From Clostridiales bacterium (lineage in GTDB: Bacteria; Bacillota; Clostridia; Christensenellales; Borkfalkiaceae): a DNA stretch of 64,000 bases. The position numbers and the translations under genes are program-made. This document shows positions 1,054 to 62,825 of the stretch, piece by piece. Within the stretch, counting starts at the first letter, position 1. Each line of letters opens with the position of its first letter. The notes beneath the pieces were generated by a model that was given only the letters and a program-made list of their open reading frames with translations, had not been told where the DNA came from and did no database searches. The DNA lies in contig JAMPAF010000006.1 in NCBI GenBank assembly GCA_023667345.1, positions 6,997 through 70,996 of the forward strand. Direction: 5' to 3'.

Positions 1054-1059
1054 GATAAT

Positions 1060-1329: not shown

Positions 1330-1357
1330 AATAAAACGCGGAGCAAATAACAATAAA

Positions 1358-8557: not shown

Positions 8558-8757
8558 ATTTCTCTCTCGTCGATTTCTTTTGCTTGGGGCGCAAAACAAA
8601 TGCGACGAATTTGAGGGCGTTGCCCTAGCCGCGCGATAAATTTAAGCCCTCTATTATTAGAAATCGCGCGGCTTTACCTACTGAGGCGCAGGTATGCGCA
8701 AATTGGGGCGCGCTGCGCAAAAGCGCGGTTTTGCTTGCTACATTTATTATTTTAAAA
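8558..8757 (-). repeat. L element copy immediately upstream of obg
   Basis: The reverse complement aligns end to end with 23685-23883. Starts right after the obg ATG. Confidence 0.85.
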
Positions 8758-9084
8758 ATTTTAATTCGCAATGCGGAATTACTTATTACGGTCGGAGTAA
8801 TCAAACGCAGACTACGTAATTCTGGATTGCCACGGGCACAAGTGCCCTCGCAATGACGGCGTCCCCAACCCCTTGCCTTCCCCGTTGAAGGGACGAGCAA
8901 CACATTTCTCAAAACAGCACTGTGCGCTGTTTTGGCGTTGCGAGATGAGCAAACGCATATGTCCCGCGTTTGCGGTGACCGAACACGCCGTTTCCCTTGC
9001 GGCGTGTGAGAAAGGTGGCTGCGTAGCAGACGGAAGAGGTTGGTTCTTTTAATTATTCCTCAGCCGCATTCCTAATTCCGAATT
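8758..9084. repeat. hairpin chain: heptamers, T2 module (8807-8859), P-like hairpin, three unique hairpins, P2/P3 modules, H array (9064-9084)
   Basis: T2 = reverse complement of CCGTCATTGCGAGGGCACTTGTGCCCGTGGCAATCCAGAATTACGTAGTCTGC. Stems CAAAACAGC/GCTGTTTTG, GCAAACGC/GCGTTTGC, ACACGCCG/CGGCGTGT. GGCTGC-gta-GCAGAC. CCGCATT CCTAATT CCGAATT overlap the rho stop. Confidence 0.8.
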
Positions 9085-10513
9085 AACTTTTAAATACTTT
9101 CAAAAACGCCTGCGATTTGACGCAGAATTCCCCGTTCGTCGCCGCCTTTTTCATCGACGCGTACAGCTCTTCCTCTTTTAAGTTTTTGGCAAGCTGTCCG
9201 CGGATAACCGCCGCGCAACCGAGTTCGTTTTCGTTCAATAAAAGCTCTTCCTTCCTCGCGCCCGAAGAGCGTATGTCGATTGCGGGGAAAACCCTTCTTT
9301 CGGCAAGCTGACGGGAAAGTACGATTTCCATATTGCCCGTAGACTTGAACTCTTCGTAAATGATATCGTCAAGTCTGCTGCCCGTATCGACGAGCGCGGT
9401 TGCGATTATTGTCAGCGAGCCGCCGTTTTCGATATTGCGCGCCGCGCCGAAAAAGCGTTTGGGCTCGACGAGAGCCTGCGGGTCGAGACCGCCCGAAAGC
9501 GTTCTGCCCGAGTTCGCGAGCGCATTGTGCGCCCTTGCAAGACGGGTTATGCTGTCGAGCAAAAGAACGACGTCCCTGCCCGTTTCCGCCTGCCGCTTTG
9601 CATATTCAAGGGTAAGCCCCGCAATGTGCGTATGGTGCACGTCGCCCTTGTCGAACGTGGAATATATCACCTCAGCGCCGTCGACAGAGCGCATAATGTC
9701 GGTGACCTCTTCGGGGCGCTCGTCCACCAAAAGCACGATAACCAGCGCGTCGGGGTGGTTGCGGCGGATACCGCACGCTATGTTTTTGAGCATAGTCGTC
9801 TTGCCCGCCTTGGGGGGCGAAACTATCAGAGCCCTCTGCCCGAAGCCTATCGGCGAGAAGAGGTCGATTACCCTGTCGGTAAGATTGCCGTCGGGGTTTT
9901 CGAGAGTTATGCGTCTGTCGGGATAGCAAGGGGTGAGGCTTTCGAAAGGAATTCCGCGGGGCGTATCGGGCGAGCGTCCGTTCACGCTTAGAATATAGGT
10001 TGCGCCCGGGCACTCGTTGGGTTTTCTGCGCTTTGCTCTGCACACTATTTTATCGCCCGTGCGCAGGCGGAAACGGTTGACGAACGAGATATGCATGAAC
10101 ACGTCGTTCGCCGAAGTTATCTGCATATTCTGCGTGCGCAGAAACCAGAACTTTTCTGTGGGCTCCAAAACGCCCGAATAGGTCGCCTCTTCCTCTTCTT
10201 CCACCGAAGAAAGCGTTAAAACGCCCTTTTCGGGCGGCTCCTCGGCAGAGCTTGCAAGCTGGGCATAGTATTGCTTGCACTTTAAAATTTCCTCCACCGT
10301 CTCAAAGTCGTACTCCTCCGACTTGGGGGGCGCGCCGCGCGTGGGACGGGGGCAAGGCTCCGTCCGGTTTTTGGCGATGGCGAGAATGTCGTCGATAATC
10401 TCCGCCTTTTTCCTCTTCGTGGGGTTAGCAACGCCAACCGCCCTGCCTATCTGCCAAAGCTGGTGTATGCCCTTTGTGTCGAGCCTTAATCTGATACTGT
10501 CGGCTAAATCCAT
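9083..10513 (-). CDS. rho: transcription termination factor Rho
   Basis: Walker A SPPKAGKTT, LLVDERPEEV, and RecA-type core with ALVDTGSRLDD...EFKSTGNMEIVL. N-terminal extension of about 110 aa before the RNA-binding domain. Confidence 0.95.
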   Translation of the reverse strand: MDLADSIRLRLDTKGIHQLWQIGRAVGVANPTKRKKAEIIDDILAIAKNRTEPCPRPTRGAPPKSEEYDFETVEEILKCKQYYAQLASSAEEPPEKGVLTLSSVEEEEEATYSGVLEPTEKFWFLRTQNMQITSANDVFMHISFVNRFRLRTGDKIVCRAKRRKPNECPGATYILSVNGRSPDTPRGIPFESLTPCYPDRRITLENPDGNLTDRVIDLFSPIGFGQRALIVSPPKAGKTTMLKNIACGIRRNHPDALVIVLLVDERPEEVTDIMRSVDGAEVIYSTFDKGDVHHTHIAGLTLEYAKRQAETGRDVVLLLDSITRLARAHNALANSGRTLSGGLDPQALVEPKRFFGAARNIENGGSLTIIATALVDTGSRLDDIIYEEFKSTGNMEIVLSRQLAERRVFPAIDIRSSGARKEELLLNENELGCAAVIRGQLAKNLKEEELYASMKKAATNGEFCVKSQAFLKVFKS

Positions 10514-14485: not shown

Positions 14486-15796
14486 ATGAACAAAATGTCG
14501 GTTAAAGATTTGAAAAATCTTAAAGGCAAAAAAGTACTCGTAAGGTGCGATTTCAACGTGCCTATGAAAGACGGCGTCATTACTGACGAAAACAGAATTT
14601 TAGGTGCGCTCCCCACCATTAAATATCTTTTGGACGCGGGCGCACGCGTTACCCTTTGCTCGCATATGGGCAAGCCCCACTCCATTTTCTCCGCCGAGGT
14701 CAAGCTCAACAAAAAGGACAAGAAAAAGGTCGAGGCGGGCGAAACCACCGCGGAAGCTATCGTCGAAAAGGCTAAAAAGGACGAGCCCAAAAAGCTCACC
14801 CTTGCCCCCGTCGCAAAGAGACTTGCAGAACTTACGGGCGGCAAAGTCGTGTTCGCTTCCGACGTAATAGGCGCGGACGCTAAGGCAAAGCGCGACGCGT
14901 TAAAGGACGGCGAGGCGGTTTTGCTTGAAAACCTGCGCTTCCACTGGGAAGAGGAGAAAAAGGACGAAGCGTTCTGCAAAGAGCTTGCTTACGACGCGGA
15001 AATTTACGTCAACGACGCGTTCGGCACGGCGCACCGCTCTCACGCTTCCACCGCGGCTATCGTCGAGTACGGCATTATAAAGACCGCCGTCTGCGGCTTC
15101 CTCATCGAAAAAGAGCTGTCGGTTATGGCGGCTACGCTCGAAAATCCCGAAAGACCTTTCGTCGCAATTTTGGGCGGCGCGAAGGTTGCGGATAAACTGA
15201 ACGTAATTTCCAACCTTTTGGAAAAGTGCGACACGCTGATAATCGGCGGCGGCATGGCTTACACCTTCCTTAAAGCCAAGGGCTACGAGGTGGGCACCTC
15301 GCTTTTGGACGAAGAGAAGATAGGCTACTGCAAGGAAATGCTTGAAAAAGCCGAAAAAGCGGGCAAAAAATTGCTTTTACCCGTCGACACGGTTGTGTGC
15401 AAGGCGTTCCCCGACCCCATCGACGCGCCCGTCGAGGTTGTCACCGTCGACAGCGACAAGATACCCGCGGATATGAAGGGTATGGATATAGGCGAAAAGA
15501 CGAGAAAGCTTTACGCGGACGCGGTTGCGAGCGCGAAGTCGGTCGTTTGGAACGGACCTATGGGCGTGTTCGAAAACCCCACCTTAGCTGCGGGCACGAT
15601 TGCGGTTGCCAAGGCTTTGGCGGACGTTTACGGCAAGTGCACGACAATTATCGGCGGCGGCGACAGCGCGGCGGCTGTACAGCAGCTCGGCTTTGCAGAT
15701 AAAATGAGCCATATCTCAACGGGCGGCGGCGCGTCGTTAGAGCTTTTCGAAGGCAAAGTTCTCCCTGGCATTGCTTGCCTGAACGACAAAAATTAA
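14486..15796 (+). CDS. pgk: phosphoglycerate kinase (with Lys-rich insertion)
   Basis: [17 protein letters not shown], and GGGDSAAAV motifs. 436 aa, about 35-40 aa longer than typical because of the insertion at residues about 68-100. Confidence 0.95.
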
Positions 15797-15804
15797 AATA
15801 ATTC

Positions 15805-23684: not shown

Positions 23685-23883
23685 TATTATAAAATAATAA
23701 ACGTAGCAAGCAAAACCACGCTTTTGCGCAGCGCGACCCAATTTGCGAAAACTTTCGCCTCAGTAGGTAAAGCCGCACGATTTCTAATAATCGAGGGCTA
23801 AAACCTATCGTGCGGCTAGGGCAACGCCCTCAAATTCGCAGAAAATATTTTGCGCCCCAAGCAAAAGATTTTTGCGAGAGAGG
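23685..23883 (+). repeat. L element copy immediately upstream of smpB
   Basis: AAAATAATAAACGTAGCAAGCAAAACCACGCTTTTGCGCAGCGCGACCCAATTTGCG...GCCCCAAGCAAAAGATTTTTGCGAGAGAGG, then 5 nt to the ATG. Confidence 0.85.
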
Positions 23884-23888
23884 TTTTT

Positions 23889-24335
23889 ATGAAGCAGATA
23901 GCGTACAACAAGTCCGCCTCATTCGAATATTTTATCGAGACCAAATTCGAGGCGGGAATAGTTTTGGAGGGCGCGGAAGTCAAGTCTTTGCGGGCGGGCA
24001 ACTGCAACCTGAAAGACAGCTTCTGCTTTATACGGGACGGCGAAGTCACCCTAAAAAATATGCACATACCCGTCTACGACAAGAGTGGCGCGTTCAACTC
24101 AAAGGACAGCAAGCGCGATAGAAAGCTTTTACTGCACAAGTACGAAATAGACAAAATCGTCGGCAAGATAAACCAAAAGGGTATGACGCTCGTGCCCATA
24201 TCCCTCTACTTTAAGGACAACTTAATCAAGGTTGAGGTTGCGCTTTGCCGCGGCAAACAGAACTACGACAAAAAGCAGTCCATAAAAGCGCGCGATATAG
24301 ACCGCGACACAAAAAGACAGATAAAAGATTATTAA
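23889..24335 (+). CDS. smpB: SsrA-binding protein SmpB
   Basis: NKSASFEYFIETKFEAGIVLEGAEVKSLR...RKLLLHKYEI. Start at ATG 23889 preceded by GAGAGAGG. Confidence 0.95.
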   Translation: MKQIAYNKSASFEYFIETKFEAGIVLEGAEVKSLRAGNCNLKDSFCFIRDGEVTLKNMHIPVYDKSGAFNSKDSKRDRKLLLHKYEIDKIVGKINQKGMTLVPISLYFKDNLIKVEVALCRGKQNYDKKQSIKARDIDRDTKRQIKDY

Positions 24336-24625
24336 TTCGGAATTATGAATGCGGAATTCGGAATTAAAATAGACCGCATTATTACCTTCCCCTTAGGGGG
24401 AAGGTGGGTTGACCGATTAGGTCAAGCCGAATGAGGGGTTGGCTATTTAAAACCGACTAACCCCTCATCCGTCCCAACCTTACGGTTGCGACACCTTCCC
24501 CCTAAGGGGAAGGTCAAACAGCGGAATAAATTATTTAAATAATTCAACTCGGTATAATTCCGCCCCGCGCTTGCGCAGCACGGAGCGTAGCGCAGTAATT
24601 ACGAATTCTTCATTAAATAAAGGAG
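24334..24625 (+). repeat. full element: H array (24334-24368), type I P core (24384-24514), linker GCGGAATAAATTATTTA, U module (about 24571-24612)
   Basis: Five-hairpin core bounded by ACCTTCCCC-ttag-GGGGAAGGT and ACCTTCCCC-ctaa-GGGGAAGGT. The first heptamer overlaps the smpB stop. Confidence 0.9.
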
Positions 24626-25910: not shown

Positions 25911-25913
25911 GGC

Positions 25914-25941
25914 AATTCGGAATGCGGAATGCGGAATTAAG
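25914..25941 (+). repeat. H array, 4 units (AATTCGG AATGCGG AATGCGG AATTAAG)
   Basis: Starts 3 nt after the metY stop and is followed by a terminator hairpin. Confidence 0.8.
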
Positions 25942-25952
25942 GTAAAAAGAGT

Positions 25953-25984
25953 GCCGCGCGGCAAAGTTGCCGCGCGGCTTTTAA
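25953..25984. terminator. bidirectional terminator between the convergent metY and metA
   Basis: GCCGCGCGGCAA-ag-TTGCCGCGCGGC, with TTTT downstream and AAAAA upstream. Confidence 0.8.
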
Positions 25985-26022
25985 TATTCACCGAAATTGC
26001 GCATAGCTAATTGCTAATTATT

Positions 26023-26979: not shown

Positions 26980-27178
26980 ATAAATTATTTCTTCAGCTTA
27001 ACCTTCCCCTTAGGGGGAAGGTGGCATTTTCGAAGAATGAGAAAATGTCGAATGAGGGGTTGGTTGGTTTGAACGCACTAACCCCTCATCCGTCGCCGCA
27101 TTAAGTGCGGCGACACCTTCCCCCTAAGGGGAAGGTCACAGTGCGGTTTTCATTCTTAATTCTTAATTCTTAATTTTC
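26980..27178 (+). repeat. type I P core (27001-27136) with flank AAATAAATTATTT and inverted H array (27151-27178)
   Basis: Same five-hairpin plan as 24384-24514 but with different P2 and P4 stems. The array covers the sdaA stop codon. Confidence 0.9.
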
Positions 27179-29750: not shown

Positions 29751-29984
29751 GTCATTCTGTCCCGCCGTAAGGCGGCACGAAGTAGCGGAAAGCGGTTACG
29801 TCATTCTGAGCGGAAAGCGGTACTGAAAAGTAAGTTGAAACAGTAAAGCTTTCCCGCTTGCAGTCGAAGAATCTTTTTGCGCGCCATTTCTCGCGCAAAA
29901 CACTTTTTCCTTTGATACGACGTTATTTAAGGTAAAAAAGTATCGGAAAAGATTTCTCCACTCACTACGTTCGGTCGAAATGAC
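29751..29984 (+). repeat. T composite (two GTCATTCTG modules, long internal stems, CGAAATGAC end)
   Basis: GTCATTCTGTCCCGCCGTAAGGCGGCACGAAGTAGCGGAAAGCGGTTACGTCATTCTGAGCGGAAAGCGG...TTTTGCGCGCCATTTCTCGCGCAAAA...GGTCGAAATGAC. Collinear with 3943-4118 and inverted relative to 62355-62643. Confidence 0.85.
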
Positions 29985-34490: not shown

Positions 34491-34589
34491 GCGTCGTGAC
34501 AGGGCGTCCCTGCACCCGAGCCCTTTAATTGTTTGCACGTAAAACAAACTTTATCACAGCAAAACAGTGCGCCCATGCACCCAAGCCCT

Positions 34590-35031
34590 GCCGCATGCCG
34601 TGACACGCAGTAGCGGAAAGCGGTACACACCCACCCGTCATTATGAGGTATTTGCGGCATTGCGGACTTGTTTGAAACATTTAAGCATTTAGCCGCAAAA
34701 ACCGTAATAATCTTTTTGCGCGCCTCGAAGAGGTACTCTCGCGCAAAACTAACCTTGCCGCATTACAACGCTATTTAAGACGAACACCCGCAAACTCCGT
34801 AATTCTGGATTGCCACGTCGCTACGCTCCTCGCAATGACGGTAACCAAACACCCGCTATGCTGACGGGTCGAAATGATATGTCTTAATGTGCTCGCAAAA
34901 CAATTAAAAAAGTCGCGGGGCGAATTTTTTCGCCCCGCGACTTTTAAAATTTTTACTTTAATTCCGCCCCTTATGCTTGCAACGACACGGAGCGTAGCGC
35001 CGTAATTCCGAATTCCGAATTCCGAATTCCT
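34590..35031. repeat. mosaic block: T modules, T3 copy (34636-34766), T2 copy (34797-34841), terminator hairpin, U module, H array (35004-35031)
   Basis: T3 aligns with 43795-43924. T2 here has the apical segment GAGGAGCGTAGCGACG. AATTCCG x3 plus AATTCCT end 2 nt before the rplI stop. Confidence 0.85.
34905..34945 (-). terminator. terminator downstream of rplI (also usable on the + strand)
   Basis: 17-bp stem AAAAGTCGCGGGGCGAA/TTCGCCCCGCGACTTTT flanked by A and T runs. Confidence 0.75.
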
Positions 35032-35033
35032 AA

Positions 35034-36992: not shown

Positions 36993-37204
36993 CAACCTCT
37001 ATCCCCTCTTCGAGGTACTTTCCCCTTCAAAGGGGAAAGCAAGGGTTCCGCAGACTACGTAATTCTGGATTGCCACGGCGGCAAGCCGCCAGCGCAATGA
37101 CGGCTCCCAGCTCTCGCCTTCCACTTTGAAGGGGAAGGTGTCACCGCAGGTGACGGAAGAGGTTGGTTCAATTAAATTTTTGCCACAATTCCGCATTGCG
37201 CATT
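36993..37204. repeat. type II P element, circularly permuted and interrupted by a T2 module (37049-37103), plus H array (37184-37204)
   Basis: CAACCTCTATC (36993) and GAAGAGGTTGG (37156) now pair across the whole element. The array unit GCGCATT overlaps the glnS stop. Confidence 0.85.
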
Positions 37205-38852
37205 ACTTATTAAAGTTGTCTTTAAGCGAGACGATTTCCGAAAGGCGCGCCTTGCCGCCTTCGCAACCGCATACCTTGTAGTAGCCCGTGCGCATAAGCT
37301 GAAAGCTCTTACCCGCGCTCTCCGCCGCGTACGGCTCGACCTTGCCCCAACGGGTGTTAATACTGTCCTTATTCAGCCTTTCGGCGTAGTCCTGGTCGGG
37401 GTATTCCTCGTCCTTTAATAGGGGCTTGTAGGCGACGAACTCCGCGTCAACGCCGTACTTGCAATCCACCCACTGGATAACGCCCTTCGCCTTAATTTCG
37501 CTCTTGACCTCGCTTCCCGAGCGGGTTTCGGGGAAGTAGGTGCACAAAATTTCCTTTACCTCGCCGCTTTCGTCCAAAACGACGTCATCGCAACGCACAA
37601 TATACGCCGCCTTCAACCTTACGGTGCCGCCCTTATACAGCCTTTTGAACTTGGGCGGGGGCACGAGCGCAAAGTCGGACCTTTCAATATACACGCTGCC
37701 GGTAAACTTTACGGGGCGGGTTTCGCCGCTTCCGTCCGTGGGGTTTTTCTCGAAGCCGAGCTCCTCTTCGCCGTCGTAATTGGTTATGGTAAGTTTTACG
37801 GGGTCGGTGACCGCCATAGCCCTCTCCGCCGTGGCGTTGAGCTCGTCGCGCACGCACTCGTCAAGCTGTGCGATATTGACGACGCCGTAATTTTTGGCAA
37901 CCCCGACGTCGGCGCAGAATTTGCGCAGTGCCATGGGCGGCACGCCGCGGTTTTTCAAGCCCATAAGCGTGGGCATGCGCGGGTCGTCCCAGCCCGAGAC
38001 GAACCCCTCGTCCACAAGCTTTTTTAAATACCGCTTGGACATAAGCGTGTTGGTTATGTTCAGCCGCGCGAACTCAATCTGCCGCGGCACGGGCTGAGCA
38101 AAGCCCGCCTTTTCTATCACCCAGTCGTACAGGGGGCGGTGATTTTCGAATTCCAAAGAACAGAGAGAGTGCGTTATGCCCTCGATTGCGTCGGATACGG
38201 GGTGCGCGAAATCGTACATAGGATAGATGCACCACTTGTCGCCCTGACGGTAGTGCGGCACGTGCGCTATGCGGTAGATTACAGGGTCGCGCATATTGAT
38301 ATTGGGCGACGACATATCTATTTTCGCGCGCAAAACTTTTGCGCCGTCGGGGTACTTGCCCTCTTTCATTTCGCGGAAGAGCTGCAAATTTTCCTCTACG
38401 CTTCTGTTTCTGTACGGGCTCTCTTTGCCCGCTTCGGTGAGCGTGCCGCGCGTAGCCGTTATCTCGTCGGCGGACAAATCGCACACATAGGCGTTGCCCT
38501 CGCGGATATACTTTTCGGCAATCCCGTACATTTCGTCGTAGTAGTCGGACGCGAAGAACAGATTGTCGTAGTCAAAGCCCAGCCACTTTACCGCGTCGAT
38601 TATGGAATTTACGTATTCGTAATCTTCCTTTGCGGGGTTGGTGTCGTCCATACGAAGGTTAATCTTGCCGTTGTACTTTTCCTTTACGCCGAAATTTATG
38701 CAGAGCGCTTTTACGTGCCCTATGTGCAGATAGCCGTTGGGCTCGGGCGGAAAGCGCACGCAGATTTTGTTGCCGCGCCCCTCGTACTTGCCGCTTTTTA
38801 TATCCTCGTTAATAAACTGTTCTATAAAATTTGTTGCCTCGGGAAGTTCCAT
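37203..38852 (-). CDS. glnS: glutamine--tRNA ligase
   Basis: Class I HIGH (PEPNGYLHIGH) and KMSKS-like LMSKR. Length and N-terminal NFIEQFINEDI are typical of GlnRS. Confidence 0.9.
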   Translation of the reverse strand: MELPEATNFIEQFINEDIKSGKYEGRGNKICVRFPPEPNGYLHIGHVKALCINFGVKEKYNGKINLRMDDTNPAKEDYEYVNSIIDAVKWLGFDYDNLFFASDYYDEMYGIAEKYIREGNAYVCDLSADEITATRGTLTEAGKESPYRNRSVEENLQLFREMKEGKYPDGAKVLRAKIDMSSPNINMRDPVIYRIAHVPHYRQGDKWCIYPMYDFAHPVSDAIEGITHSLCSLEFENHRPLYDWVIEKAGFAQPVPRQIEFARLNITNTLMSKRYLKKLVDEGFVSGWDDPRMPTLMGLKNRGVPPMALRKFCADVGVAKNYGVVNIAQLDECVRDELNATAERAMAVTDPVKLTITNYDGEEELGFEKNPTDGSGETRPVKFTGSVYIERSDFALVPPPKFKRLYKGGTVRLKAAYIVRCDDVVLDESGEVKEILCTYFPETRSGSEVKSEIKAKGVIQWVDCKYGVDAEFVAYKPLLKDEEYPDQDYAERLNKDSINTRWGKVEPYAAESAGKSFQLMRTGYYKVCGCEGGKARLSEIVSLKDNFNK

Positions 38853-38866
38853 ACTTTTTTACCTTT

Positions 38867-39943
38867 TCAACTGTCGAAATTTTCTTTCAATGCGGTTATG
38901 GCGGATTTGTAACCTTTTGCCGCGGATTTTTGCCACAGCTCCTTTGCCTTGTATATATCTTGCCTTACGCCGTCTCCGTTATAATAGCAAACGCCTAAAT
39001 TGTACATTCCCGCGGCGCTGCCTTTTTCCGCGGATTTTGAATACCAGTTTACGGCTTTTGCGTAATCTTGCTTCACGCCCGTCCCGTTAAGATAGCAACT
39101 GCCCAAATTGCTCATAGAGTCGCCGTTGCCCGCTTCGGCGGCTTTCAAGTACCAGTACATAGCTTTCGAATAGTCCTGTGCAACTCCGTTGCCGCTCTCG
39201 TAACATACTCCTAAATTGGCTTGCGCGGAGACGTTGCCTTGCGCCACGGATTTTTCGTACCAACATACCGCCTTTTCGTAATCCGTTTTCGTTCCTAAAC
39301 CGTTATAATAGCAATAGCCCAGTCTGAACTGCGCCTTTGCGTTGCCTTGCTCGGCGGACTTTATAAACAAGCCGAAAGCCCTTTCGTAATCCTGTTTTAC
39401 CCCGACGCCAAAATAATAAAATTCGCCAAGATATAACTGCGCTACGGAAACTCCCTGTTCGGAGGATTTTTCGAACAAGTGAAAAGCTTTTACAACGTCC
39501 TTGCCTGTGCCGAGACCGTTAATATACATTTCGCCGAGATGGCATTGCGCGTATCCGTTTCCCTGCTCGGCGGACTTTGTATACCAATAGAGAGCCTTCT
39601 GAAAATCCTGCTTTACGCCGTAACCTTTAAAGTAACAGTCACCTAAAAGACACTGCGCAAAGTGATGACCCTGCACGGCGGCTTTTTCGTACCAGTACGC
39701 CGCCTTTGCAAAATCTTTATCCACGCCTAAACCGCGGGAATATGCGTCGCCCATATTGCGCTGCGCGCTTGCAAACCCCTGTTCGGCGGATTTTAGCCAC
39801 CAATACACCGCTTTTTTATAATCTTTCGGAATGCCGTCGCCCGTAAAATAACGCGTGCCCAAAAGGCACTGCGCACCGGCGTCGCCCCGTTCGGCGGATA
39901 TTAAAAGTTGTTCTATGCTTGCTTTAAGTTCTTTACCCGCCAT
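38867..39943 (-). CDS. Sel1-like (SLR/TPR) repeat protein
   Basis: About nine 36-aa repeats of the form A..WY.KSAEQGN..AQ..LG.CY..G.GV.QDY.KA. No signal peptide. Confidence 0.85.
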   Translation of the reverse strand: MAGKELKASIEQLLISAERGDAGAQCLLGTRYFTGDGIPKDYKKAVYWWLKSAEQGFASAQRNMGDAYSRGLGVDKDFAKAAYWYEKAAVQGHHFAQCLLGDCYFKGYGVKQDFQKALYWYTKSAEQGNGYAQCHLGEMYINGLGTGKDVVKAFHLFEKSSEQGVSVAQLYLGEFYYFGVGVKQDYERAFGLFIKSAEQGNAKAQFRLGYCYYNGLGTKTDYEKAVCWYEKSVAQGNVSAQANLGVCYESGNGVAQDYSKAMYWYLKAAEAGNGDSMSNLGSCYLNGTGVKQDYAKAVNWYSKSAEKGSAAGMYNLGVCYYNGDGVRQDIYKAKELWQKSAAKGYKSAITALKENFDS

Positions 39944-41632: not shown

Positions 41633-41657
41633 AACTACCTAACGCTCCCGATAATTT

Positions 41658-41880
41658 AATTAAGAATTATGAATTAAGAATTAAGAATTATGAATTAAGA
41701 ATTCGGAATTCGGAATTGTATACCCCCCTCAGTCACCGTTGGTGACAGCTCCCCCCTCTATAAAGAAGGGTGAGCCTTGCCTTAGCGCAACCCGTGGCAT
41801 ACCCCTTTTCAAGGGGGAGGCTCCCGCTTTGCGGGTGGTGGGGGTTCAATTCTTAATTCTACATTCTACATTCTGAATCA
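41658..41880 (-). repeat. full element: 9-unit H array (41658-41720), Q core (41718-41848), inverted H array (41848-41880)
   Basis: The Q core is the reverse complement of 58696-58818, with stem-loop differences. Lies between the divergent fhs and glyQS. Confidence 0.9.
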
Positions 41881-43463: not shown

Positions 43464-43596
43464 ATGAAAAAGTTTTTAGTTGCTGCGGCGACCGCATTTC
43501 GGACACTTATTCATACGACTTTATAGTAGGTATGTACGACGCGGAAGCCCGTACGGTTTACTACTATGAACAGCACACTTAAAATCATAAAAATTC

Positions 43597-43636
43597 AATT
43601 CGCCGCGGGATATCCCGCGGCGAATTAATTTTTTTG
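43597..43636 (+). terminator. intrinsic terminator downstream of glyQS
   Basis: AATTCGCCGCGGGA-ta-TCCCGCGGCGAATT plus AATTTTTTT. Confidence 0.8.
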
Positions 43637-43648
43637 CACCTTATTATG

Positions 43649-44106
43649 ACCTTCCCCTTAGGGGGGTCTGTTGCGGTAAAAAAGCATTTAAGAAAAGATT
43701 TCTCGATTTCGCTTACGCTCCACTCGAAATGACGCTTCTCAATCGCTACTGCGTGCCGCTTTGCGGCGGGGGCGAAATGACGCCTACTCTACCCCGTCAT
43801 TATGAGGTTTTTGCGGCATTGCGGACTTGTTTGAAACGTTAAAGTATTTAGCCGTAAAAACCGTAATAATCTTTTTGCGCGCCTCGAAGAGGTATTCTCG
43901 CGCAAAACTAACCTGCCGCATTACTGCGCAATTTAAGGTGTAAATAACACATCCCTCATCCGTCTTGACCTTAACGGTCAAGCCACCTTCCCCCTTTATT
44001 AAGGTGGAAGGCACGATTGCGGTAAAAAATTAGCCGCGCGGCTATTTGCCGCGCGGCTTAACTTTTACTTTCATTCTTAATTCTGAATTCTTAATTCTTA
44101 ATTCAC
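43649..44106. repeat. mosaic block: P1 hairpin, T ends, T3 copy (43795-43924), inverted P3-P2-P1 modules (43950-44012), palindrome GCCGCGCGGC x2, H array (44072-44106)
   Basis: The reverse complement of 43950-44012 matches 47140-47200 except for the P2 stem (CTTGACC-gttaa-GGTCAAG versus CTGC-gta-GCAG). Confidence 0.85.
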
Positions 44107-44123
44107 AACGATTGCGCGTTGAA

Positions 44124-47104: not shown

Positions 47105-47112
47105 AGTTTTTT

Positions 47113-47373
47113 AATGCGGAATGCGGAATGCGTCGTCCCTTGCCTTCCACCTTAATAAAGGGGGAAGGTGGCTGCGTAGCAGACGGATGAGGGATGTGTA
47201 ATATGACTGCATTATAAATAAGGTCAGATTACCGAAACCTCTATCCCCTTGACCTTGACGGTCAAGGTACTTTCCCCTTAAACGCAAGGGGAAAGCAAGT
47301 ATAAGGTGATAATTCCTAATTCCTAATTCCTAATTCCTAATTCTTAATTCTTAATTCTGCATTCTTAATTAAC
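47113..47373 (+). repeat. full type II P element with both H arrays (47113-47133; 47311-47373)
   Basis: AATGCGG AATGCGG AATGCGT ... CCTTCCACC-ttaataaa-GGGGGAAGG, GGCTGC-gta-GCAGAC, GGATGAGGG...CCTCTATCC enclosing GTAATATGAC/GTCAGATTAC, CCTTGACC-ttga-CGGTCAAGG, CTTTCCCC-ttaaacgca-AGGGGAAAG, then nine CNNAATT units. Confidence 0.9.
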
Positions 47374-48224
47374 TAAAAGTCCCACTTTGGTATAAACGCC
47401 GTTTCCGCGCTGTCTTTATCCTGCAAAAACACGTTTTTTAGCCCTAACTTTCGCACGCGGCTTAACACCTTGTCGTACTCTCTGTCCGTAACCTTGCGTT
47501 CAAGCTCGGGGAATTTTTCCGCCTCGCCGAACGGCGTGTACTGCCGCATCAGCGAAAAATATGTGTCCTCGGGTAGTTCCGCGACGAATTCCGCAACCTT
47601 TACGCTGTCGTACGAGGCGAGCGGCAAGATTAAGTGCCGCACTATGCACCCAGATAAAAGTTTACCGTCGCCGGAAAGCTTTTTCGGCTTTTTCGACATA
47701 AACTCCACCGCTGGCAGAGCAAAGTCGGCATAGTCCGCGCGCCCCGTGTAGCGCTCCGCCAGAAAGCCGTCGATAAACTTTAAGTCGGGCAAATAGATAT
47801 CCGTGAACGTGTCCGCGATTTTAAGCGTCGAAAGTTTTTCGTAACCGTGCGTGTTGTACACAACGGGAATTTTCGGGCGGTATATGGAAAACGCCTCGGC
47901 AATCTTGTCCACGTAGTGCGTGGGCGTAACCAAATTTATGTTGTCCGCGCCCCGCTCTTCAAGCTCTTTGAATATGCCCGCAAGCTCCGAGGCGGTTATT
48001 TCCTTTCCCCTTTCGTTGCGCGAAAGTTCGAAGTTCTGGCAGAAAACGCACCGCAAGGAACACCCGCAGAAAAACACGCAACCGCTTCCGTTTTTAAAGG
48101 AGATTACGGGCTCCTCGAACGGGTGAAGATAGTATTTTGCGATTTTAATTCCGCCCACGCCGCAACGCCCCGCACTCTTTTCGCGGTCGGCATTGCACGA
48201 AACGGGGCAAAGCGAGCATTTCAT
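47373..48224 (-). CDS. radical SAM protein, PflX-like activase family
   Basis: CSLRCVFCQN (CxxxCxxC) plus an N-terminal Cys cluster CSLCPVSC. Confidence 0.85.
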   Translation of the reverse strand: MKCSLCPVSCNADREKSAGRCGVGGIKIAKYYLHPFEEPVISFKNGSGCVFFCGCSLRCVFCQNFELSRNERGKEITASELAGIFKELEERGADNINLVTPTHYVDKIAEAFSIYRPKIPVVYNTHGYEKLSTLKIADTFTDIYLPDLKFIDGFLAERYTGRADYADFALPAVEFMSKKPKKLSGDGKLLSGCIVRHLILPLASYDSVKVAEFVAELPEDTYFSLMRQYTPFGEAEKFPELERKVTDREYDKVLSRVRKLGLKNVFLQDKDSAETAFIPKWDF

Positions 48225-48262: not shown

Positions 48263-48306
48263 CTGCTGTAATTTAATTGACATCGGAAAAATATGTATAT
48301 ATAATA

Positions 48307-48400
48307 AATTCGGAATTAGGAATGCGGAATTCGGAATTATTCCGCAAACGTGCTTTCCACCTTAATAAAAGGGAATGCAAGAGAAGAGGTTCTATTCCGA
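48307..48400 (+). repeat. H array (5 units, 48307-48341) plus degenerate P1/P3 modules upstream of the metK riboswitch
   Basis: AATTCGG AATTAGG AATGCGG AATTCGG AATTATT; CTTTCCACC-ttaataaaa-GGGAATG; GAAGAGGTT. Confidence 0.7.
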
Positions 48401-48426: not shown

Positions 48427-48556
48427 TTAACCATAGAGAGTGTGCGAGAGAACGGCTCCGCGACCACACAGCAACCTGCTTTGCAAGGTGCTAAGACCGT
48501 ACCGATGGGTAGAAATACGTTTTTTAAACCCCGTTCGGTTGCGAGCGGGGCTTTTA
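48427..48556 (+). promoter_or_regulatory. SAM-I (S-box)-like riboswitch with terminator, metK leader
   Basis: CCATAGAGAGTGTGCGAGAGAACGGCTCCGCGACCACACAGCAACCTGCTTTGCAAGGTGCTAAGACCGTACCGATGGGTAG carries the conserved AGAGAG, AGCAACC and GGTGCTAA blocks with plausible P1-P4 pairings. CCCCG...CGGGG plus CTTTT follows (48529-48555). Some core positions deviate from the consensus I remember. Confidence 0.65.
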
Positions 48557-49762: not shown

Positions 49763-49792
49763 ATTGCAGTCAGACTTATCACCGCAAAACGA

Positions 49793-49834
49793 AGCGTGGC
49801 GCAACAAAAGTTGCGCCACGCTCTTTATATTTTT
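49793..49834 (+). terminator. intrinsic terminator after metK
   Basis: AGCGTGGCGCAAC-aaaa-GTTGCGCCACGCT plus CTTTATATTTTT. Confidence 0.8.
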
Positions 49835-49900
49835 ACATAAATTTGACCATTGCAAGGGTGTAGCGGAACGAGGTACACCACCCGCCGCCGTTGGGGTATG

Positions 49901-50056
49901 CCGTCATTGCGAGGGCACTTGTGCCCGTGGCAATCCAGAATTACGTAGTCCGCGGTGTTCGCTTCCTACTTGTCGCCGTATTACCACGAGGGGATTCTCT
50001 CGGTCAATCGCCCGCTTTCAGCGGGTCTCATATCCCTCGAAATGACACACCTTAAT
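49901..50056 (+). repeat. T2 module (49901-49953) plus T4 module (inverted copy of 62355-62425)
   Basis: CCGTCATTGCGAGGGCACTTGTGCCCGTGGCAATCCAGAATTACGTAGTCCGC; then ...CCACGAGGGGATTCTCTCGGTCAATCGCCCGCTTTCAGCGGGTCTCATATCCCTCGAAATGACAC. Confidence 0.85.
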
Positions 50057-50067
50057 GTGCTTGTAAA

Positions 50068-50105
50068 TCATTTAAAAGCCGCCGCGCAAAATTTGCGCGG
50101 CGGCT
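50068..50105 (-). terminator. intrinsic terminator after ligA
   Basis: AGCCGCCGCGCAAA/TTTGCGCGGCGGCT, with TTTTAAA on the minus strand. Confidence 0.7.
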
Positions 50106-50128
50106 AAAATTTTTATTTTACCTTAATT

Positions 50129-50154
50129 GCGCATTGCCCATTGCACATTGCGAA

Positions 50155-50156
<2 letters not shown>
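50129..50156 (-). repeat. H array variant (GCGCATT GCCCATT GCACATT GCGAATT)
   Basis: Four 7-nt units. The last one overlaps the ligA stop codon (50155-50157). Confidence 0.75.
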
Positions 50157-52307
<2,151 letters not shown>

Positions 52308-52320
<13 letters not shown>

Positions 52321-54680
52321 ATCGTCAGCGGGGCAATCGAAGCCGACAGCTCCTTTATCCCTTGCCCTTCGAACGCAATGTTTACTACACTGCCGCCGTT
52401 TTTGACGGCGATTACCGTGCCCGTGCCGAACTTGGGGTGGCGCACCTTACAGCCGACGTAAAAATTTTTCGCCGCCGGTTTTTGCTTGGGCGCGGTTGAA
52501 AACGCCGACGCCGCCGAAAAGCTCTTCTGAGGCTTTGCGGGCTGAGAATAACCTGCCTGGGAATAGGAAGGCGAAGGGTCGGGCGCGTAGCCGTCGTCGG
52601 AAGAATAGACGCCCCGTCCGCGGCCGCGCTCGCCGTCCCAGAAGTCGCCCTCGTACCCGCTTCCGTAGGTTGAACGCGAGCCGTAGCCGCCAGAACGCGA
52701 GTAGCCGCTTCCGTAACCCGAGCCGCCGTACCCGCCGCCATATGCGCGCTTGGTATATGACGAAGTTTCGCGCTCGCTGCTTTTTATTTTGTCGCCCATC
52801 TCCTTAATAAACGGCGAGGGCGCGGTGCGCTCCCTGTGCCCGTACAGATAGCGGCTTTTGGAGCGGGTGAGCCACAACTGCTTCTTTGCGCGGGTCACCG
52901 CGACGTACATAAGCCGCCTTTCCTCTTCGAGCGCGGAGGGGTCGTCCTTGGCGCGCGACGTCGGCATAATGCCCTCTTCCAGCCCTACGATAAATACGTT
53001 TTTGAATTCGAGCCCTTTGACCGAGTGAATGGTGGCGAGAGTCACGTAGTTGCCGTCGTCCATTTCGTCGGTGTCGGAAGCGAGCGTGACCTGATTTAAA
53101 TAGTCGTTTAAAGTTGCCGTCGGGTTGAGCCGCGCAAAGTCGTCTACCGCCGCGATAAATTCGTCTATATTGGCAAGTTTGCTGTCCCCGTCGTCCGTGC
53201 CGTCGTCGTAAGCCGACTTTAAGTCGGTGGTAAGAATAATTTCGCGCACCAAACTGCCCACGTCGGACGACTGCGCGGATATGACGAACTGTTTGACCGT
53301 CGAGGCGAAGCCCGCAATCTTTTCCTTTGCAGATTTGGGCAGAGGCAACCCGTCAACGTCGATACACGCGTCGTACAGCGAAAGCCCGCCGCTCTCCTGC
53401 GCGTAGCTTTCCATAACCTCTATCGTCTTTGCGCCTATGCCGCGGCGTGGCACGTTGATAATGCGCGCGAACGCCTCGTTGTCGAACGGGTTGGAAACAA
53501 GGCGCATATAGGCTAAAATATCTTTAATTTCCTTGCGCTCGAAGAACTTGAAGCCGCCGAAAACCTTGTACGGTATGCCGTACTTTGCGAACTCCTGCTC
53601 GTACGAGCGGGTGAGCGCGTTTATGCGCATTAAAACGGCGAAGTCAGAGTAATTGCCCCCCGCATATACCGCGGCGTTTATGGTTTTTGCCGCAAATAAC
53701 GCCTCGTCCTTTTCCTCTTCCGACTGCACGTATTCGGGCTTTATTCCCTCCTCTGCCTCCGTCCAGAGCGTCTTTTTGCGGCGCACTCCGTTGTGGGCTA
53801 TGACCTTGTTCGCAAGGTCTAAAATAGACTTTGTCGAGCGGTAGTTGCGTTGCAGCTTATATACCTTCGCTTGGGGATAGTCCTTATCGAACTTTAAAAT
53901 ATTCTCTATCTCCGCGCCTCGCCAGCCGTATATCGACTGGTCGTCGTCGCCCACAGCGAAAAGGTTACCGTGCTTGCTTGCGAGCAGCCTTATAATGTTG
54001 TACTGCACGGTGTTCGTGTCCTGAAATTCGTCGACGTGAATATATTTAAACTTGTCGGAAAGATAGCCGCGCACCTCGGCGTTGCCGCGAAGAAGCCTTA
54101 GCGTCTGCACGAGTAAATCGTCGAAATCGAGCGCGTTGCACTCGGCTAAATAGGCGTTATACTTTTCGTATACGTCGCACGCGACGCGTATGTTGTCCTC
54201 GTGCTTGTAGCGAACGCCGTACTCGTCGGGGTCCAGCCCGAGCATTTTCGCGTTGCCTATGTGGTACTTAACCGACTTCATTAACTTTTCGTCGTAGCCG
54301 AGCTCCTTGAAAACCTTTTTGATTACGTTTGACCGCTCGGTTTCGCTGTAAATCGAAAAGTTGGGCTGAATTCCGCCCGCATCGCCGTATCTGCGCAATA
54401 TCCGCACGCACATCGAGTGAATGGTGCAAATCCACATATTTCCGATATCGCCGAGGGAATAGGCGACCCTCTCTTTCATTTCGCGCGCCGCCTTGTTAGT
54501 AAAGGTTATCGCGAGGATATTCGAGGGGGAACAGAGCTTTTTTTCGAGTATGTAGGCAATTCGCGAGGTTAAAACGCGCGTTTTGCCGCTGCCTGCGCCC
54601 GCGAGCACGAGCACCGCGCCCTGCGTATCCGTGACGGGCTTTATCTGTTCTTCGTTTAAGTTCTTCAAAATTTCTTCCAT
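52308..54680 (-). CDS. pcrA: ATP-dependent DNA helicase PcrA/UvrD with G/S/Y-rich linker and C-terminal Tudor-like domain
   Basis: AGAGSGKT, DEFQDTN, VTLATIHSVKGLEF, and YVAVTRAKKQL motifs. Conserved pcrA-ligA order. Start at ATG 54680 (MEEILKNLNEEQ). Confidence 0.95.
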
Positions 54681-54728: not shown

Positions 54729-54893
54729 GTCAATTCAGAATTAAGAATTAAGAATTTGAGTCAATTCGGAATTAGGAATTTATGTCAATTCGGAATTATG
54801 AATGCGGAATGCGTAATTATGCTAAGGTAAAAATATTTACAACAATCCGACCGTCACTCTTAATTCTACATTCTTAATTCTGCATTAATTCCG
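54729..54893. repeat. block upstream of pcrA: H units, 72-nt IR core (54784-54855), H array (54859-54893)
   Basis: The reverse complement of 54784-54855 differs from 52228-52299 at 3 of 72 positions. The flanking heptamers also correspond. Confidence 0.9.
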
Positions 54894-58663: not shown

Positions 58664-58840
58664 AATTTAGAATTAGAAATTCGGAATTCGTAATTAACCC
58701 CCACCACCGCTACGCGGAGCCTCCCCCTTGAAAAGGGGTATGCCGCGGGTTGCGACAGACAAGGCTCACCCCTTAGTAAGGGGGGAGCTGTCACGCAAGT
58801 GACAGAGGGGGGGGTATATAATTCAGTATTCCGCATTAAA
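58664..58840 (+). repeat. full element: H array (58664-58698), Q core (58696-58818), degenerate inverted H units
   Basis: AATTTAG AATTAGA AATTCGG AATTCGT AATTAAC; AACCCCCACCACCGCTACGCGGAGCCTCCCCCTTGAAAAGGGGTATGCCGCGGGTTGCG...GGGGGGAGCTGTCACGCAAGTGACAGAGGGGGGGGTATA. Sits in the 5' UTR of the transcarbamylase gene. Confidence 0.9.
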
Positions 58841-59789: not shown

Positions 59790-59811
59790 CAAGCGTGCCA
59801 TTGAAAATCAT

Positions 59812-59850
59812 AAAGCCGCGCGGCGTTAATCTAACGCCGCGCGGCTTTTA
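59812..59850 (+). terminator. terminator after the transcarbamylase gene
   Basis: 17-bp stem AAAGCCGCGCGGCGTTA-atc-TAACGCCGCGCGGCTTT, then TTA. Confidence 0.7.
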
Positions 59851-59860
59851 CCTTGTTGTG

Positions 59861-60050
59861 ACCTTCCCCTTAGGGGGAAGGTGGCATTTTCGAGGAACGA
59901 GAAATGTCGGATGAGGGGTTGGCTCTTATAAACCTACTAACCCCTCATCCGTCCCAACCTTACGGTTGCGACACCTTCCCCCTAAGGGGAAGGTTAAATT
60001 GCGGATAAATTATTTAATTTTACCTTAATTCTTAATTCTACCTTAATTAC
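59861..60050 (+). repeat. type I P core (59861-59994), linker GCGGATAAATTATTTA, inverted H units (60024-60050)
   Basis: P2 resembles the 27001 copy, while P3-P5 are as in the 24384 copy. The array covers the metallophosphoesterase stop codon. Confidence 0.9.
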
Positions 60051-60831
60051 TAATTGTAATAACCACTATTTCCGGTCGGTTAAAAAGGCGCAACGGGCAC
60101 TGCGAATTGCCCAGTCCGCGAGAGATTACCTGCCGCATATTTCCGCACGAATGTATTCCCGAACAGTATTTGGGGAACAGTCCCTGCCCCGGTGAATAGA
60201 TGCCTATTTTCGTAAACGGCACCCGCCACTGACCGCCGTGCGCGTGCCCGCATAAAGTTAAATCGTACCCCGCCAAAGAGTACCTTTCGATATACTGCGG
60301 AAGGTGGGTTAAAAGCAGATTGAACCCCTCTTCTGCGCACAGCGAAAAGAAGCCGCCGCACTTTATTTTGGCGCAGTTTACGCCCGCAATATTTATGCCG
60401 AACGCCTCTATGCACTCGCCCTCAGGCACGGTTGCGCCCGCCTCTTTTATCCGCTCTTTAAGTGTGCGGTACTCCGTGCTCCGCATTTCGTGGTTGCCGC
60501 TTACGTAGTACACGGGCGCGATTTTGCAAAGCTCCTTTATAATCGCCAGCGCGACGGCGATATCGCGCGCGCGGTACTTATGGATAATATCGCCGGTGAT
60601 TGCGATAAAGTCGGGGCTCTCCCTTTCTATCTTTTTCAAAAGCCGCTTATTCCCCTTGCCGAACGACTTGCCGTGCAAATCGGAAAGGTGGACTATCTTA
60701 ACCCCCTTTTCGGGCGCTTTTTCGCTTTCGACTTTATACCGCGTAATTGTTATTAAGTTGTTGGAGTACAGGCAAAACAGCGCTATAAGCACAACGCCCG
60801 CAACACACCCCAAAGTTATATACAGCCACAT
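60043..60831 (-). CDS. membrane-anchored metallophosphoesterase (YkuE-like)
   Basis: N-terminal TM. HLSDLHG, GDIIH, GNHE, and GHAHGG calcineurin-like motifs. ATG abuts the trmB stop (TGAATG). Confidence 0.85.
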   Translation of the reverse strand: MWLYITLGCVAGVVLIALFCLYSNNLITITRYKVESEKAPEKGVKIVHLSDLHGKSFGKGNKRLLKKIERESPDFIAITGDIIHKYRARDIAVALAIIKELCKIAPVYYVSGNHEMRSTEYRTLKERIKEAGATVPEGECIEAFGINIAGVNCAKIKCGGFFSLCAEEGFNLLLTHLPQYIERYSLAGYDLTLCGHAHGGQWRVPFTKIGIYSPGQGLFPKYCSGIHSCGNMRQVISRGLGNSQCPLRLFNRPEIVVITISN

Positions 60832-62255: not shown

Positions 62256-62275
62256 TATTTATACCGTAAAACAGC

Positions 62276-62311
62276 GATATCCACCCCTCCGCGGGTGGAT
62301 ATCTGCGTTTT
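62276..62311 (+). terminator. intrinsic terminator after the 182-aa membrane protein gene
   Basis: GATATCCACCC-6 nt-GGGTGGATATC plus TGCGTTTT. Confidence 0.75.
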
Positions 62312-62354
62312 AAAAGCGAATATAATTATACACTTTTACAAGCTTATAGGAGCG

Positions 62355-62823
62355 TGTCATTTCGAGCGATTGAGAATCCCGCGTAGCGGGTTCGATTGAG
62401 TCGAGAGAATCCCCTCGTGGTAATACGTGAAAAATTGGGAAGTGATATCACCTTAAATAACATTGTAATGTGGCAAGATTAGTTTTGCGCGAGAAAGGGC
62501 GCGCAAAAAGATTCTTCGACTGCAAGCGGGAAAACTTTATTATTTCATCTTACTTTATCATACCGCTTTTCGCTCAGAATGACAGTTGGCGGTGATACCG
62601 CTTTTTCGCTACTCCGTGCCGCCTGCGGCGGGGCAGAATGACGGATTGAGAATTGCTTTCGCTACTGCGGACAAAGGCATACCCCTTTTCATTCTTTACG
62701 AAAGTAAGTTTAAGATAATAAGAAGATTTGGGTGCAGCGACACGCTGCCTCCCGCGTAACGGGTGGTGGGGGTTTCATTCTGAATTCTGAATTCTAAATT
62801 CTGAATTCTTAATTCTTAATTCT
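62355..62823 (-). repeat. T4 plus inverted T composite (62355-62643), Q fragment (62677-62775), 7-unit H array (62775-62823)
   Basis: GTGTCATTTCGAGCGATTGAGAATCCCGCGTAGCGGGTTCGATTGAG...; CGCTCAGAATGAC...GGGGCAGAATGACGG; GGGTGGTGGGGGTT. The array ends 2-4 nt before the gerXC stop. Confidence 0.85.
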
Positions 62824-62825
62824 CT

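Follow-up and report, generated by a model that had tools for sequence, protein, structure and literature searches.

Inward-facing heptanucleotide arrays border mosaic intergenic inserts in a Christensenellales-like gut bacterium

Introduction

A 64-kb stretch of a metagenome-assembled Clostridiales genome (79-kb contig JAMPAF010000006.1, positions 6,997 to 70,996; hereafter the window) contains many short tandem arrays of a 7-nucleotide (nt) unit, (AATTNNG)n, which cluster at the ends of genes and repeatedly overlap stop codons. We report that these arrays form inverted borders around noncoding repeat blocks and that they vary between closely related strains. With somewhat better than even confidence, we favor the reading that slippage-prone heptanucleotide arrays serve as inverted borders to mosaic intergenic inserts that are selfish or neutral, and that stop-codon overlap is mainly a by-product of such insertion, accompanied by occasional remodeling of the encoded C terminus.

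Results

Heptanucleotide arrays are a nonrandom feature of the window

Arrays were detected as at least three units of GAATKNN with no more than one mismatch per unit, a rule that fixes unit positions 1 to 5 and leaves the freedom of positions 6 and 7 as the only unbiased result on unit composition. The detector made 25 calls, representing 22 distinct arrays, compared to about 0.1 in Markov-shuffled sequences. Three GAATTNN units followed by GAATT were matched 15 times in the window and not once in 100 shuffles. A motif-blind scan found 12 arrays of period 7, all of the AATT or AATG type, and zero to two arrays for each of the other periods from 4 to 12. The window contains 22 clear and approximately eight degenerate arrays (Table 1) with the consensus G-A-A-T-T/G-N-N and a typical length of four to five units. 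Among 109 units, conservation is 99-100% at A2, A3 and T4 and 83% at G1; T (72%) or G (27%) occupies position 5, and positions 6 and 7 are free.

All 17 array loci listed in a preliminary description of this DNA were recovered, and Tandem Repeats Finder calls period-7 arrays at the same places. Four of those arrays are degenerate: 37184-37205, 50121-50157 (where C replaces G), 58664-58698 and 60023-60055. The arrays additional to that list are a nested pair (52196-52230 and 52263-52297), one at 54762-54820, and degenerate partner arrays at 8759-8782, 24595-24617, 25991-26022 and 58818-58838. The heptamer-array feature is real, statistically robust and quick to change between strains.

We also considered whether the arrays act as stop codons in all frames. 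This idea was rejected, with 8 of 22 arrays closing three frames versus 7.0 for shuffled arrays. Searching the literature for the unit sequences returned primers only. Units of the kind GAATTAA and GAATTAT lack runs of G and have no G-quadruplex potential, which places the arrays outside the G-rich subclass of heptanucleotide repeats, but not outside the general class.

Arrays face inward from the edges of intergenic regions

The arrays had been proposed to form inverted termini, and this proposal is borne out: they are inward-facing inverted borders of inserted repeat blocks. They sit at the outer edge of intergenic regions and, followed from the gene side inward, always read (AATTNNG)n. In plus-strand coordinates, every intergenic region has its forward arrays on the left and its reverse arrays on the right, with no case of the reversed order, and forward...reverse pairs begin at 1059/1296, 41657/41846, 47112/47309, 52111/52301, 52196/52263 and 54786/54853. 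Elements with inverted arrays at both ends are 130-270 nt long and noncoding. Many arrays are solo, and some of these stand alone between a stop codon and the native terminator.

At least six kinds of structured modules are found within the arrays, meaning that several short repeat modules are combined with one recurrent boundary repeat. A 129-nt array-core-array unit is present in two copies (52192-52320 and, inverted, 54763-54891) that align without gaps at 93% identity, and the core designated type B lies between arrays in two to three copies in the 64 kb. The cores had no match in Rfam, and the sole Rfam family to exceed threshold in the window is a SAM riboswitch upstream of metK (48428-48511, 47 bits). 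The array units have no internal palindrome, which sets them apart from REP and REPIN elements, and no reading frame resembling RAYT (the REP-type transposase) was noted in the window, for which a full protein scan was not made.

Arrays are nearly absent from related species

Scanning with LigA yielded 80 loci (1.38 Mb) from Christensenellales-like gut genomes (Candidatus Coproplasma or Borkfalkiaceae), the best of which share 90% amino acid and approximately 82% nucleotide identity with the window. Across these 80 loci, which are fully syntenic, the detector made two weak calls and the motif-blind scan found no array of period 7. The window is collinear with relatives L121, L122 and L123 over 37.7-63.4 kb, and L122, the nearest species, was used to compare junctions. 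All of the syntenic intergenic regions that can be compared are longer in the window (100-657 nt) than in L122 (3-70 nt). The pcrA/ligA junction measures 226 nt in the window and 8 nt between aligned blocks in L122, where, as in L121, the ligA ATG directly follows the pcrA stop codon. The corresponding lengths are 270 and 3 nt for radical SAM/ABC-F, 186 and 15 nt for open reading frame (ORF) 54899/pcrA, and 657 and 59 nt for gene 44124/glyQS. Native intrinsic terminators are retained, displaced to the far side of the inserts. Because arrays are nearly absent from relatives and the window junctions are longer, the arrays and most modules are recent lineage-specific insertions. Judged from these alignments, the expansion took place in a single species-level lineage among uncultured, Christensenellales-like Clostridia of the gut.

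Small ancestral spacers probably account for most stop-codon overlap

Eight of 19 array blocks lie no more than 8 nt from a stop codon; random placement of blocks in present intergenic space averages 1.2 such cases and never exceeds 6 (5000 permutations). Arrays in the window are therefore closer to stops than expected from chance placement. The individual cases noted previously are also correct, with array units overlapping the stops of rho, smpB, sdaA, glnS, ligA, pcrA and the metallophosphoesterase gene (all gene names verified) and gaps of 2-8 nt separating array and stop at metY, rplI, the radical SAM gene, gerXC and ORF 54899. The better null, however, is the ancestral spacer rather than today's intergenic space. 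Most insertion points were 3-15-nt junctions, a range that covers all three gene-to-gene junctions compared, or stop-to-terminator gaps of 8-12 nt. Given such tiny spacers, any tolerated insert must abut a stop, and this constraint together with the TAA that forms when T precedes AATT explains most of the overlap. Thus, the suggested targeting of insertion to TAA or AATT at gene ends is not separable from simple spacer constraint, and no target-site duplication is visible.

A second suggestion was that arrays remodel the 3' ends of genes by supplying the stop codon. This is the case for two of the seven genes that could be compared with syntenic orthologues. The pcrA product ends in ..PLEII* in L121 and L122, ..PLTIVE* in L123 and ..PLTIIQN* in the window, a gain of two residues. 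The metallophosphoesterase ends in ..INIIKE* in relatives, ..ITISN* in the window and ..ITISNCASSCLPL* in a sister strain, where the frame reads into a different module. The other five genes (ligA, radical SAM, ORF 54899, gerXC and gene 44124) keep the native last residue, mostly in a stop context unlike that of the relatives, and the family profiles of glnS, smpB and rplI extend to the C terminus. The array-supplied stop is real, but it is a minority outcome.

Other observations concern gene ends more generally. The pgk product (15770-15800, compared with L203 1-200) ends in ..LNDKN* in the window and ..LNDKRDA* in another strain, and the downstream DNA is unrelated. In five convergent regions (34491-35033, 43464-44123, 49763-50154, 59790-60042 and 62256-62825), an array adjoins the stop of the minus-strand gene only and the plus-strand gene is never abutted; minus is the predominant gene strand around these regions. 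In a sixth convergent region (25911-26022), an array adjoins both stops. GC skew is negative across the whole window.

Array units and cassettes differ between strains

The sister strain mentioned above derives from run SRR18716857. Its genes are 97-98% identical to those of the window, and its contigs mostly break within arrays. Three arrays are unchanged (upstream of gene 1358, at 48306, and downstream of ligA), and the array upstream of ligA has one extra AATTCCG unit in the sister strain. Other arrays differ in unit composition. The rplI array has units CG, CG, CG, AC in the window versus CG and four AG in the sister strain, and the radical SAM array has AA, CA (an AATG unit), AA, AA, four AG and AT versus AA, CA and four TA. 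At three sites (downstream of rho, downstream of the metallophosphoesterase gene and upstream of the ABC-F gene), the outer unit is shared with a different cassette behind it. The glnS/gene 35803 region is wholly replaced, spanning 248 nt in the window versus 201 nt in the sister strain, with different modules and a different ribosome-binding site. In 23% of adjacent unit pairs the variable triplet is identical, versus 12% after permutation (P = 0.001), with similar results at lags 2 and 3, which points to local duplication of one to three units. Arrays also change by losing or gaining units.

The breaks of the sister-strain short-read contigs inside arrays could raise the suspicion that the arrays are an assembly or binning artifact of the metagenome-assembled genome. 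However, the same arrays occupy the same gene ends in this independent assembly, sister contigs L648 and L647 span whole arrays (48306-48340 and 1296-1330, respectively), and reading frames run cleanly into the arrays. The chance of an artifact is negligible.

The strain comparison also bears on whether the inserts are true miniature inverted-repeat transposable elements (MITEs). The arrays would then be reiterated binding sites for a transposase encoded elsewhere, which would move the elements by cut-and-paste with a preference for TAA, TTAA or AATT at gene ends. This model is consistent with the bracketing of cores by inward-facing inverted arrays, with the duplicated 129-nt block and type-B core, with the lineage-specific gain, and with the observation that 12 of 22 arrays begin T-AATT or T-AATG, several of them having no adjoining stop codon. 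Yet the five complete elements are not flanked by a consistent direct repeat, as judged with empty sites from species that are 18% diverged, and there is no transposase in the 64-kb window. In viral contigs, the genes that arrays flank are ordinary phage genes (see below), and solo arrays are found between stops and native terminators. Moreover, unit composition differs between strains where the flanks are constant, which fits repeat turnover better than transposition. We consider a MITE origin rather unlikely.

Similar arrays occur in bursts in viral contigs

Viral contigs were scanned with the same GAATT pattern and, as controls, with the GATTA and GTTAA cores of the same composition, and all three proved abundant. 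With seven units required, the counts are 36 for GAATT, 50 for GATTA and 32 for GTTAA, and GAATT at period 8 gave 21. Because the control cores are as common, GAATT has no special status in viruses, and a universal GAATT system across viruses was rejected; the phenomenon is one of lineage-specific bursts of a single heptamer family. Among the matches listed, to which the following viral results refer, some contigs show bursts, such as a Mu-like Bacteroidetes phage with 10 arrays in 12.7 kb. Protein similarity places contig L099 among the Mu-like Bacteroidetes phages, and a search for cultured phages close to the array-rich contigs gave no near match. The viral arrays are intergenic, most commonly start one base into a stop codon and prefer inward-facing pairs. 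They are directed away from the nearest gene in 104 cases versus 60, a weaker bias than in the window. Their orientation is unbiased relative to transcription (59 versus 68), and on this basis a strand-specific RNA signal was rejected. An autonomous element between viral forward...reverse pairs was likewise rejected, as only ordinary phage genes and no transposase are found there. In array-rich phage contigs L099 (1538-3293) and L117 (1591-2006), single small genes for products of 72-98 amino acids are exactly bracketed by inward-facing arrays that overlap the gene start and stop, giving a cassette-like appearance.

Candidate functions in DNA and RNA

The arrays might also function as DNA sites at which a lineage-specific protein, such as a ribbon-helix-helix protein that reads 7-bp heptads or a nucleoid protein that favors the AATT minor groove, would bind cooperatively to organize or insulate gene ends. 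The fixed AAT and G with free NN positions and the typical four to five units would suit this model, and there is precedent in the omega/ParB system of pSM19035, which uses four or more contiguous heptads (PMC9499535). However, arrays are absent from close relatives that have the same genes, unit number and composition vary between strains at a single locus, and the arrays are located past stops and not at promoters. No candidate protein was found, and GAATT is no more common than the control heptamers in viral contigs. We consider this function improbable. Planar bending of the DNA, which had been proposed on the basis of helical phasing, is unlikely by reasoning only: the 7-bp period turns successive AATT tracts by approximately 240 degrees, such that three units cancel.

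Alternatively, the arrays could act in RNA, where pairing between them would bring an upstream stop codon to the downstream start and thereby keep translation coupled or influence mRNA processing and decay at operon junctions and in 3' untranslated regions. The pcrA-ligA insert folds with z = -3.5 relative to shuffled sequence and its outer arrays are paired in the predicted structure, these two genes abut in L121 and L122, and right borders in two regions carry a ribosome-binding-site-like CATTAAATAAGGAG. The element at 47105-47375 also folds better than shuffled sequence (z = -4.9), but its arrays pair only partially and the pairing is gone from the centroid structure. Many arrays are solo, viral arrays are unbiased with respect to transcription, and rapid turnover speaks against a tuned signal. 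We judge a role of this kind to be quite improbable. The conserved 3'-untranslated-region signal suggested in the preliminary description is unlikely as well, given that arrays are absent where genes are 82% identical, differ between strains and lack orientation bias in viruses.

Other repeat families in the window

One module found in the inserts, designated 'a', has the form CCTTCCCC-TTAG-GGGGAAGG followed by TG, a covarying hairpin and GGATGAGGGG, and its end can also be written G(G/A)ATGAGGGG. Copies are located at approximately 1140-1200 and at 24384-24525, 27001-27146, 43941-43995, 47142-47200 and 59861-60005. Module 'a' has 58 distinct instances in gut metagenomes, usually right past a gene stop, and no Rfam match. 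Only one of 109 fetched module 'a' loci (L537-L645) contains an array call, approximately 7 kb from the motif. The arrays are therefore not part of this module, which is widespread without them, and constitute a separate layer. Locus L611 carries four tandem 205-nt palindromic copies of module 'a' between a duplicated terminator.

A second repeat family consists of GTCATT...GAATGAC or GGATTGCCACG...CTCGCAATGACGG hairpins, with copies at 2706-2820, 3938-4027, 8830-8866, 29800-29933, 34810-34845, 37085-37125, 49894-49954 and 62450-62588. It is shared with distant relatives L139, L175, L183 and L190 at 91-100% identity and adjoins an array in viral locus L065. A third repeat of up to approximately 190 nt, AAAACCACG...GCGCAGCGCGCCCCAATTTGCGCATAC, is present in five copies (2655-2698, 4554-4641, 5959-6050, 8562-8757 and 23687-23882), and relatives L133 and L143 carry it as well. 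The only clean presence/absence case is a 229-nt non-array repeat block (2618-2846) that is missing in the sister strain, where the empty site reads GCC-TTAA-TTATTC. Finally, ORF 38867-39943 contains six 47-nt matches at 39101-39903, spaced by 108 or 216 nt, which suggests that its product is a protein of repeats of approximately 36 residues.

Table 1. Arrays and array-bordered elements in the window.
Feature	Position	Strand	Context
Forward array, 7 units	1059-1107	+	Left border, composite element 1059-1330
Reverse array, 5 units	1296-1330	-	Right border; 27 nt upstream of gene 1358 start; identical in sister strain
Degenerate array, 2-3 units	8759-8782	+	Distal partner of array downstream of rho
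Array, 3 units	9065-9085	-	Overlaps rho stop (TAA-TTCGG); sister strain has 2 units, then different module
Forward array, 5 units	24333-24367	+	Overlaps smpB stop
Degenerate reverse array	24595-24617	-	Ends right before metY ribosome-binding site (AAGGAG)
Forward array, 4 units	25913-25940	+	3 nt past metY stop, ahead of terminator hairpin
Degenerate reverse array, AATTAGC type	25991-26022	-	Directly after metA stop; opposite side of metY terminator
Array, 4 units	27149-27176	-	One unit holds last Asn codon and TAA of serine dehydratase alpha gene (sdaA)
Array, 4 units, GAATTCG type (palindromic core)	35002-35030	-	4 nt past rplI TAG
Degenerate array, 3 units	37184-37205	-	Overlaps glnS stop
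Forward array, 9 units	41657-41719	+	Left border, type-B element
Type-B core, ~125 nt, ATACCCCCC...GGTGGGGGTT	41720-41845	+	Second copy 58699-58817; partial copy near 62700-62773
Reverse array, 4 units	41846-41873	-	Right border, type-B element
Array, 5 units	44070-44104	-	19 nt past gene 44124 stop; native terminator retained ~600 nt beyond
Forward array, 3 AATGCGG units	47112-47132	+	7 nt from ABC-F gene start
Structured core modules	47133-47308		Between forward array 47112 and reverse array 47309
Array flagged in preliminary description, 9 units	47309-47371	-	2 nt past radical SAM TAG
Forward array, 5 units	48306-48340	+	Upstream of SAM riboswitch and metK; identical in sister strain
Degenerate array, AATKNGC units	50121-50157	-	Overlaps ligA stop; between stop and native terminator
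Outer forward array	52111-52145	+	12 nt from ligA start; one more AATTCCG unit in sister strain
129-nt unit: array, 33-nt AT-rich core, array	52192-52320		Inverted copy 54763-54891
Outer reverse array	52301-52321	-	Provides final pcrA codons (IIQN) and TAA
Three forward arrays, 4/3/5 units, 24-nt higher-order repeat	54731-54820	+	Upstream of pcrA
Reverse array, 5 units	54853-54887	-	11 nt past TAG of ORF 54899
Degenerate forward array	58664-58698	+	Borders second type-B core
Degenerate reverse array	58818-58838	-	Other side of second type-B core, near argF start
Degenerate array	60023-60055	-	Overlaps metallophosphoesterase stop; C terminus unlike relatives and sister strain
Array, 7 units	62774-62823	-	4 nt past gerXC TGA

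Discussion

If the arrays are slippage-prone borders of mosaic inserts, then they would grow by replication slippage and would spread, with swapping of cassettes, through dispersed arrays recombining or switching templates with one another, or through interstrain allelic replacement. No classical cut-and-paste transposase would be involved. The arrays themselves may be selfish or neutral, and could be tolerated owing to possible foldback pairing between forward and reverse arrays and to the ribosome-binding site that the right border often brings for the next gene. Where the junction lies a few bases into a coding sequence, the array provides a new stop within a few codons.

Several points weigh against this account. 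Slippage alone explains neither the strict inward polarity nor the fixed AAT..G with drifting NN, and these properties imply some sequence-specific process or selection. The strain differences could represent allelic recombination of old polymorphisms instead of ongoing turnover, and no clean empty site was seen for an array mobility event. Finally, the analysis covers 64 kb from one metagenome-assembled genome and short contigs of one sister strain. We also entertain the distinctly unlikely possibility that the arrays are portable "handles" for a lineage-specific recombinase, nuclease or heptad-binding protein, which would set the inward polarity and drive an integron-like swapping of noncoding cassettes from one gene end to another and, in phages, of small genes that arrays flank. 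If true, this would give the heptanucleotide repeat class a mechanism.

The window offers an evolutionary snapshot, with empty sites in sister species and, in the sister strain, cassettes that differ as do the number and type of units. An array can rewrite the end of a gene and can separate operon genes that once abutted. In practice, they break short-read assemblies and can mislead the annotation of gene ends in metagenome-assembled genomes from the gut.

Comparison with known systems

Several families of intergenic repeats resemble the window inserts in organization. The BIMEs of E. coli, which contain REP sequences, and the NIMEs of Neisseria, which are flanked by dRS3, are recombination-prone intergenic mosaics of short modules and a boundary repeat. 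The window intergenic regions similarly combine modules inside a short boundary repeat, within 3' untranslated regions and between operon genes, but here the boundary consists of tandem 7-nt units instead of a single 20-35-nt palindrome, and there is no sequence similarity. No RAYT or IS110-type enzyme is known to be associated with such arrays. The foldback MITEs Correia/NEMIS, ERIC and RUP are co-transcribed at gene ends and have inverted repeats of unique sequence with defined target duplications (TA for Correia). Like these elements, the window inserts are noncoding sequences of 100-270 nt with inverted ends and hairpin folds that lie at gene ends and occasionally fuse to reading frames; unlike them, the inserts have microsatellite-like ends and no duplication was seen.

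Heptamers are themselves recurrent in bacteria. The cyanobacterial STRR heptamers are similar lineage-restricted intergenic repeats. The heptads of plasmid pSM19035 have the consensus WATCACW, which differs from that of the window arrays. Its omega ribbon-helix-helix protein binds contiguous heptads in direct or inverted orientation and requires at least four of them (PMC9499535). The window arrays are also contiguous 7-bp units, both direct and inverted, but they are chromosomal and lie past stop codons, whereas the pSM19035 heptads form a plasmid partition site. TAACTGA repeats have been described in marine Beggiatoaceae, cyanobacteria and Bacteroidetes and, like the window arrays, represent a lineage-restricted burst of one intergenic heptamer family at gene boundaries (PMC4679880). 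They differ in unit sequence and in that most lie right before a start codon and share a single orientation, with only one inverted pair reported (PMC4679880).

The heptameric intergenic repeats that Rehm et al. (2015) described in Xanthomonas (GGGAATC) and Nostoc (GGGGAYT) have much in common with the window arrays (PMC4692102). The GGGAATC repeats have heterogeneous units in 2-26 copies, most often four, are approximately 90% intergenic, and lie 28 nt from the end of the upstream gene versus 160 nt from the next gene (PMC4692102). They occupy the coding strand when downstream of a gene and the noncoding strand when upstream, form 70-75 convergent pairs, and vary in length and sequence between close species; no function was given (PMC4692102). 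The same authors cite a 2007 survey of heptamer over-representation in bacteria and a polymerase-slippage hypothesis (PMC4692102). The window arrays likewise are intergenic, have heterogeneous units with fixed and free positions, hug upstream gene ends with the same polarity, occur as convergent inverted pairs and vary between close relatives. Even the unit is related in appearance: rotated GGGAATC reads AATCGGG, which is near the AATTCGG and AATGCGG units of the window.

There are also differences. The host is a Firmicute, unlike Xanthomonas and Nostoc, and the bordering of mosaic modules, overlap with stop codons and C-terminal remodeling seen in the window were not reported by Rehm et al. 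(PMC4692102). The Xanthomonas and Nostoc repeats are G-rich and were read as G-quadruplex formers, whereas AATTAAG units cannot form quadruplexes. Because AT-rich arrays exhibit the same grammar with no such capacity, G-quadruplexes are not a general explanation of the heptanucleotide class. The window arrays possess every general feature of that class and are a further example of it, not a new kind of system.

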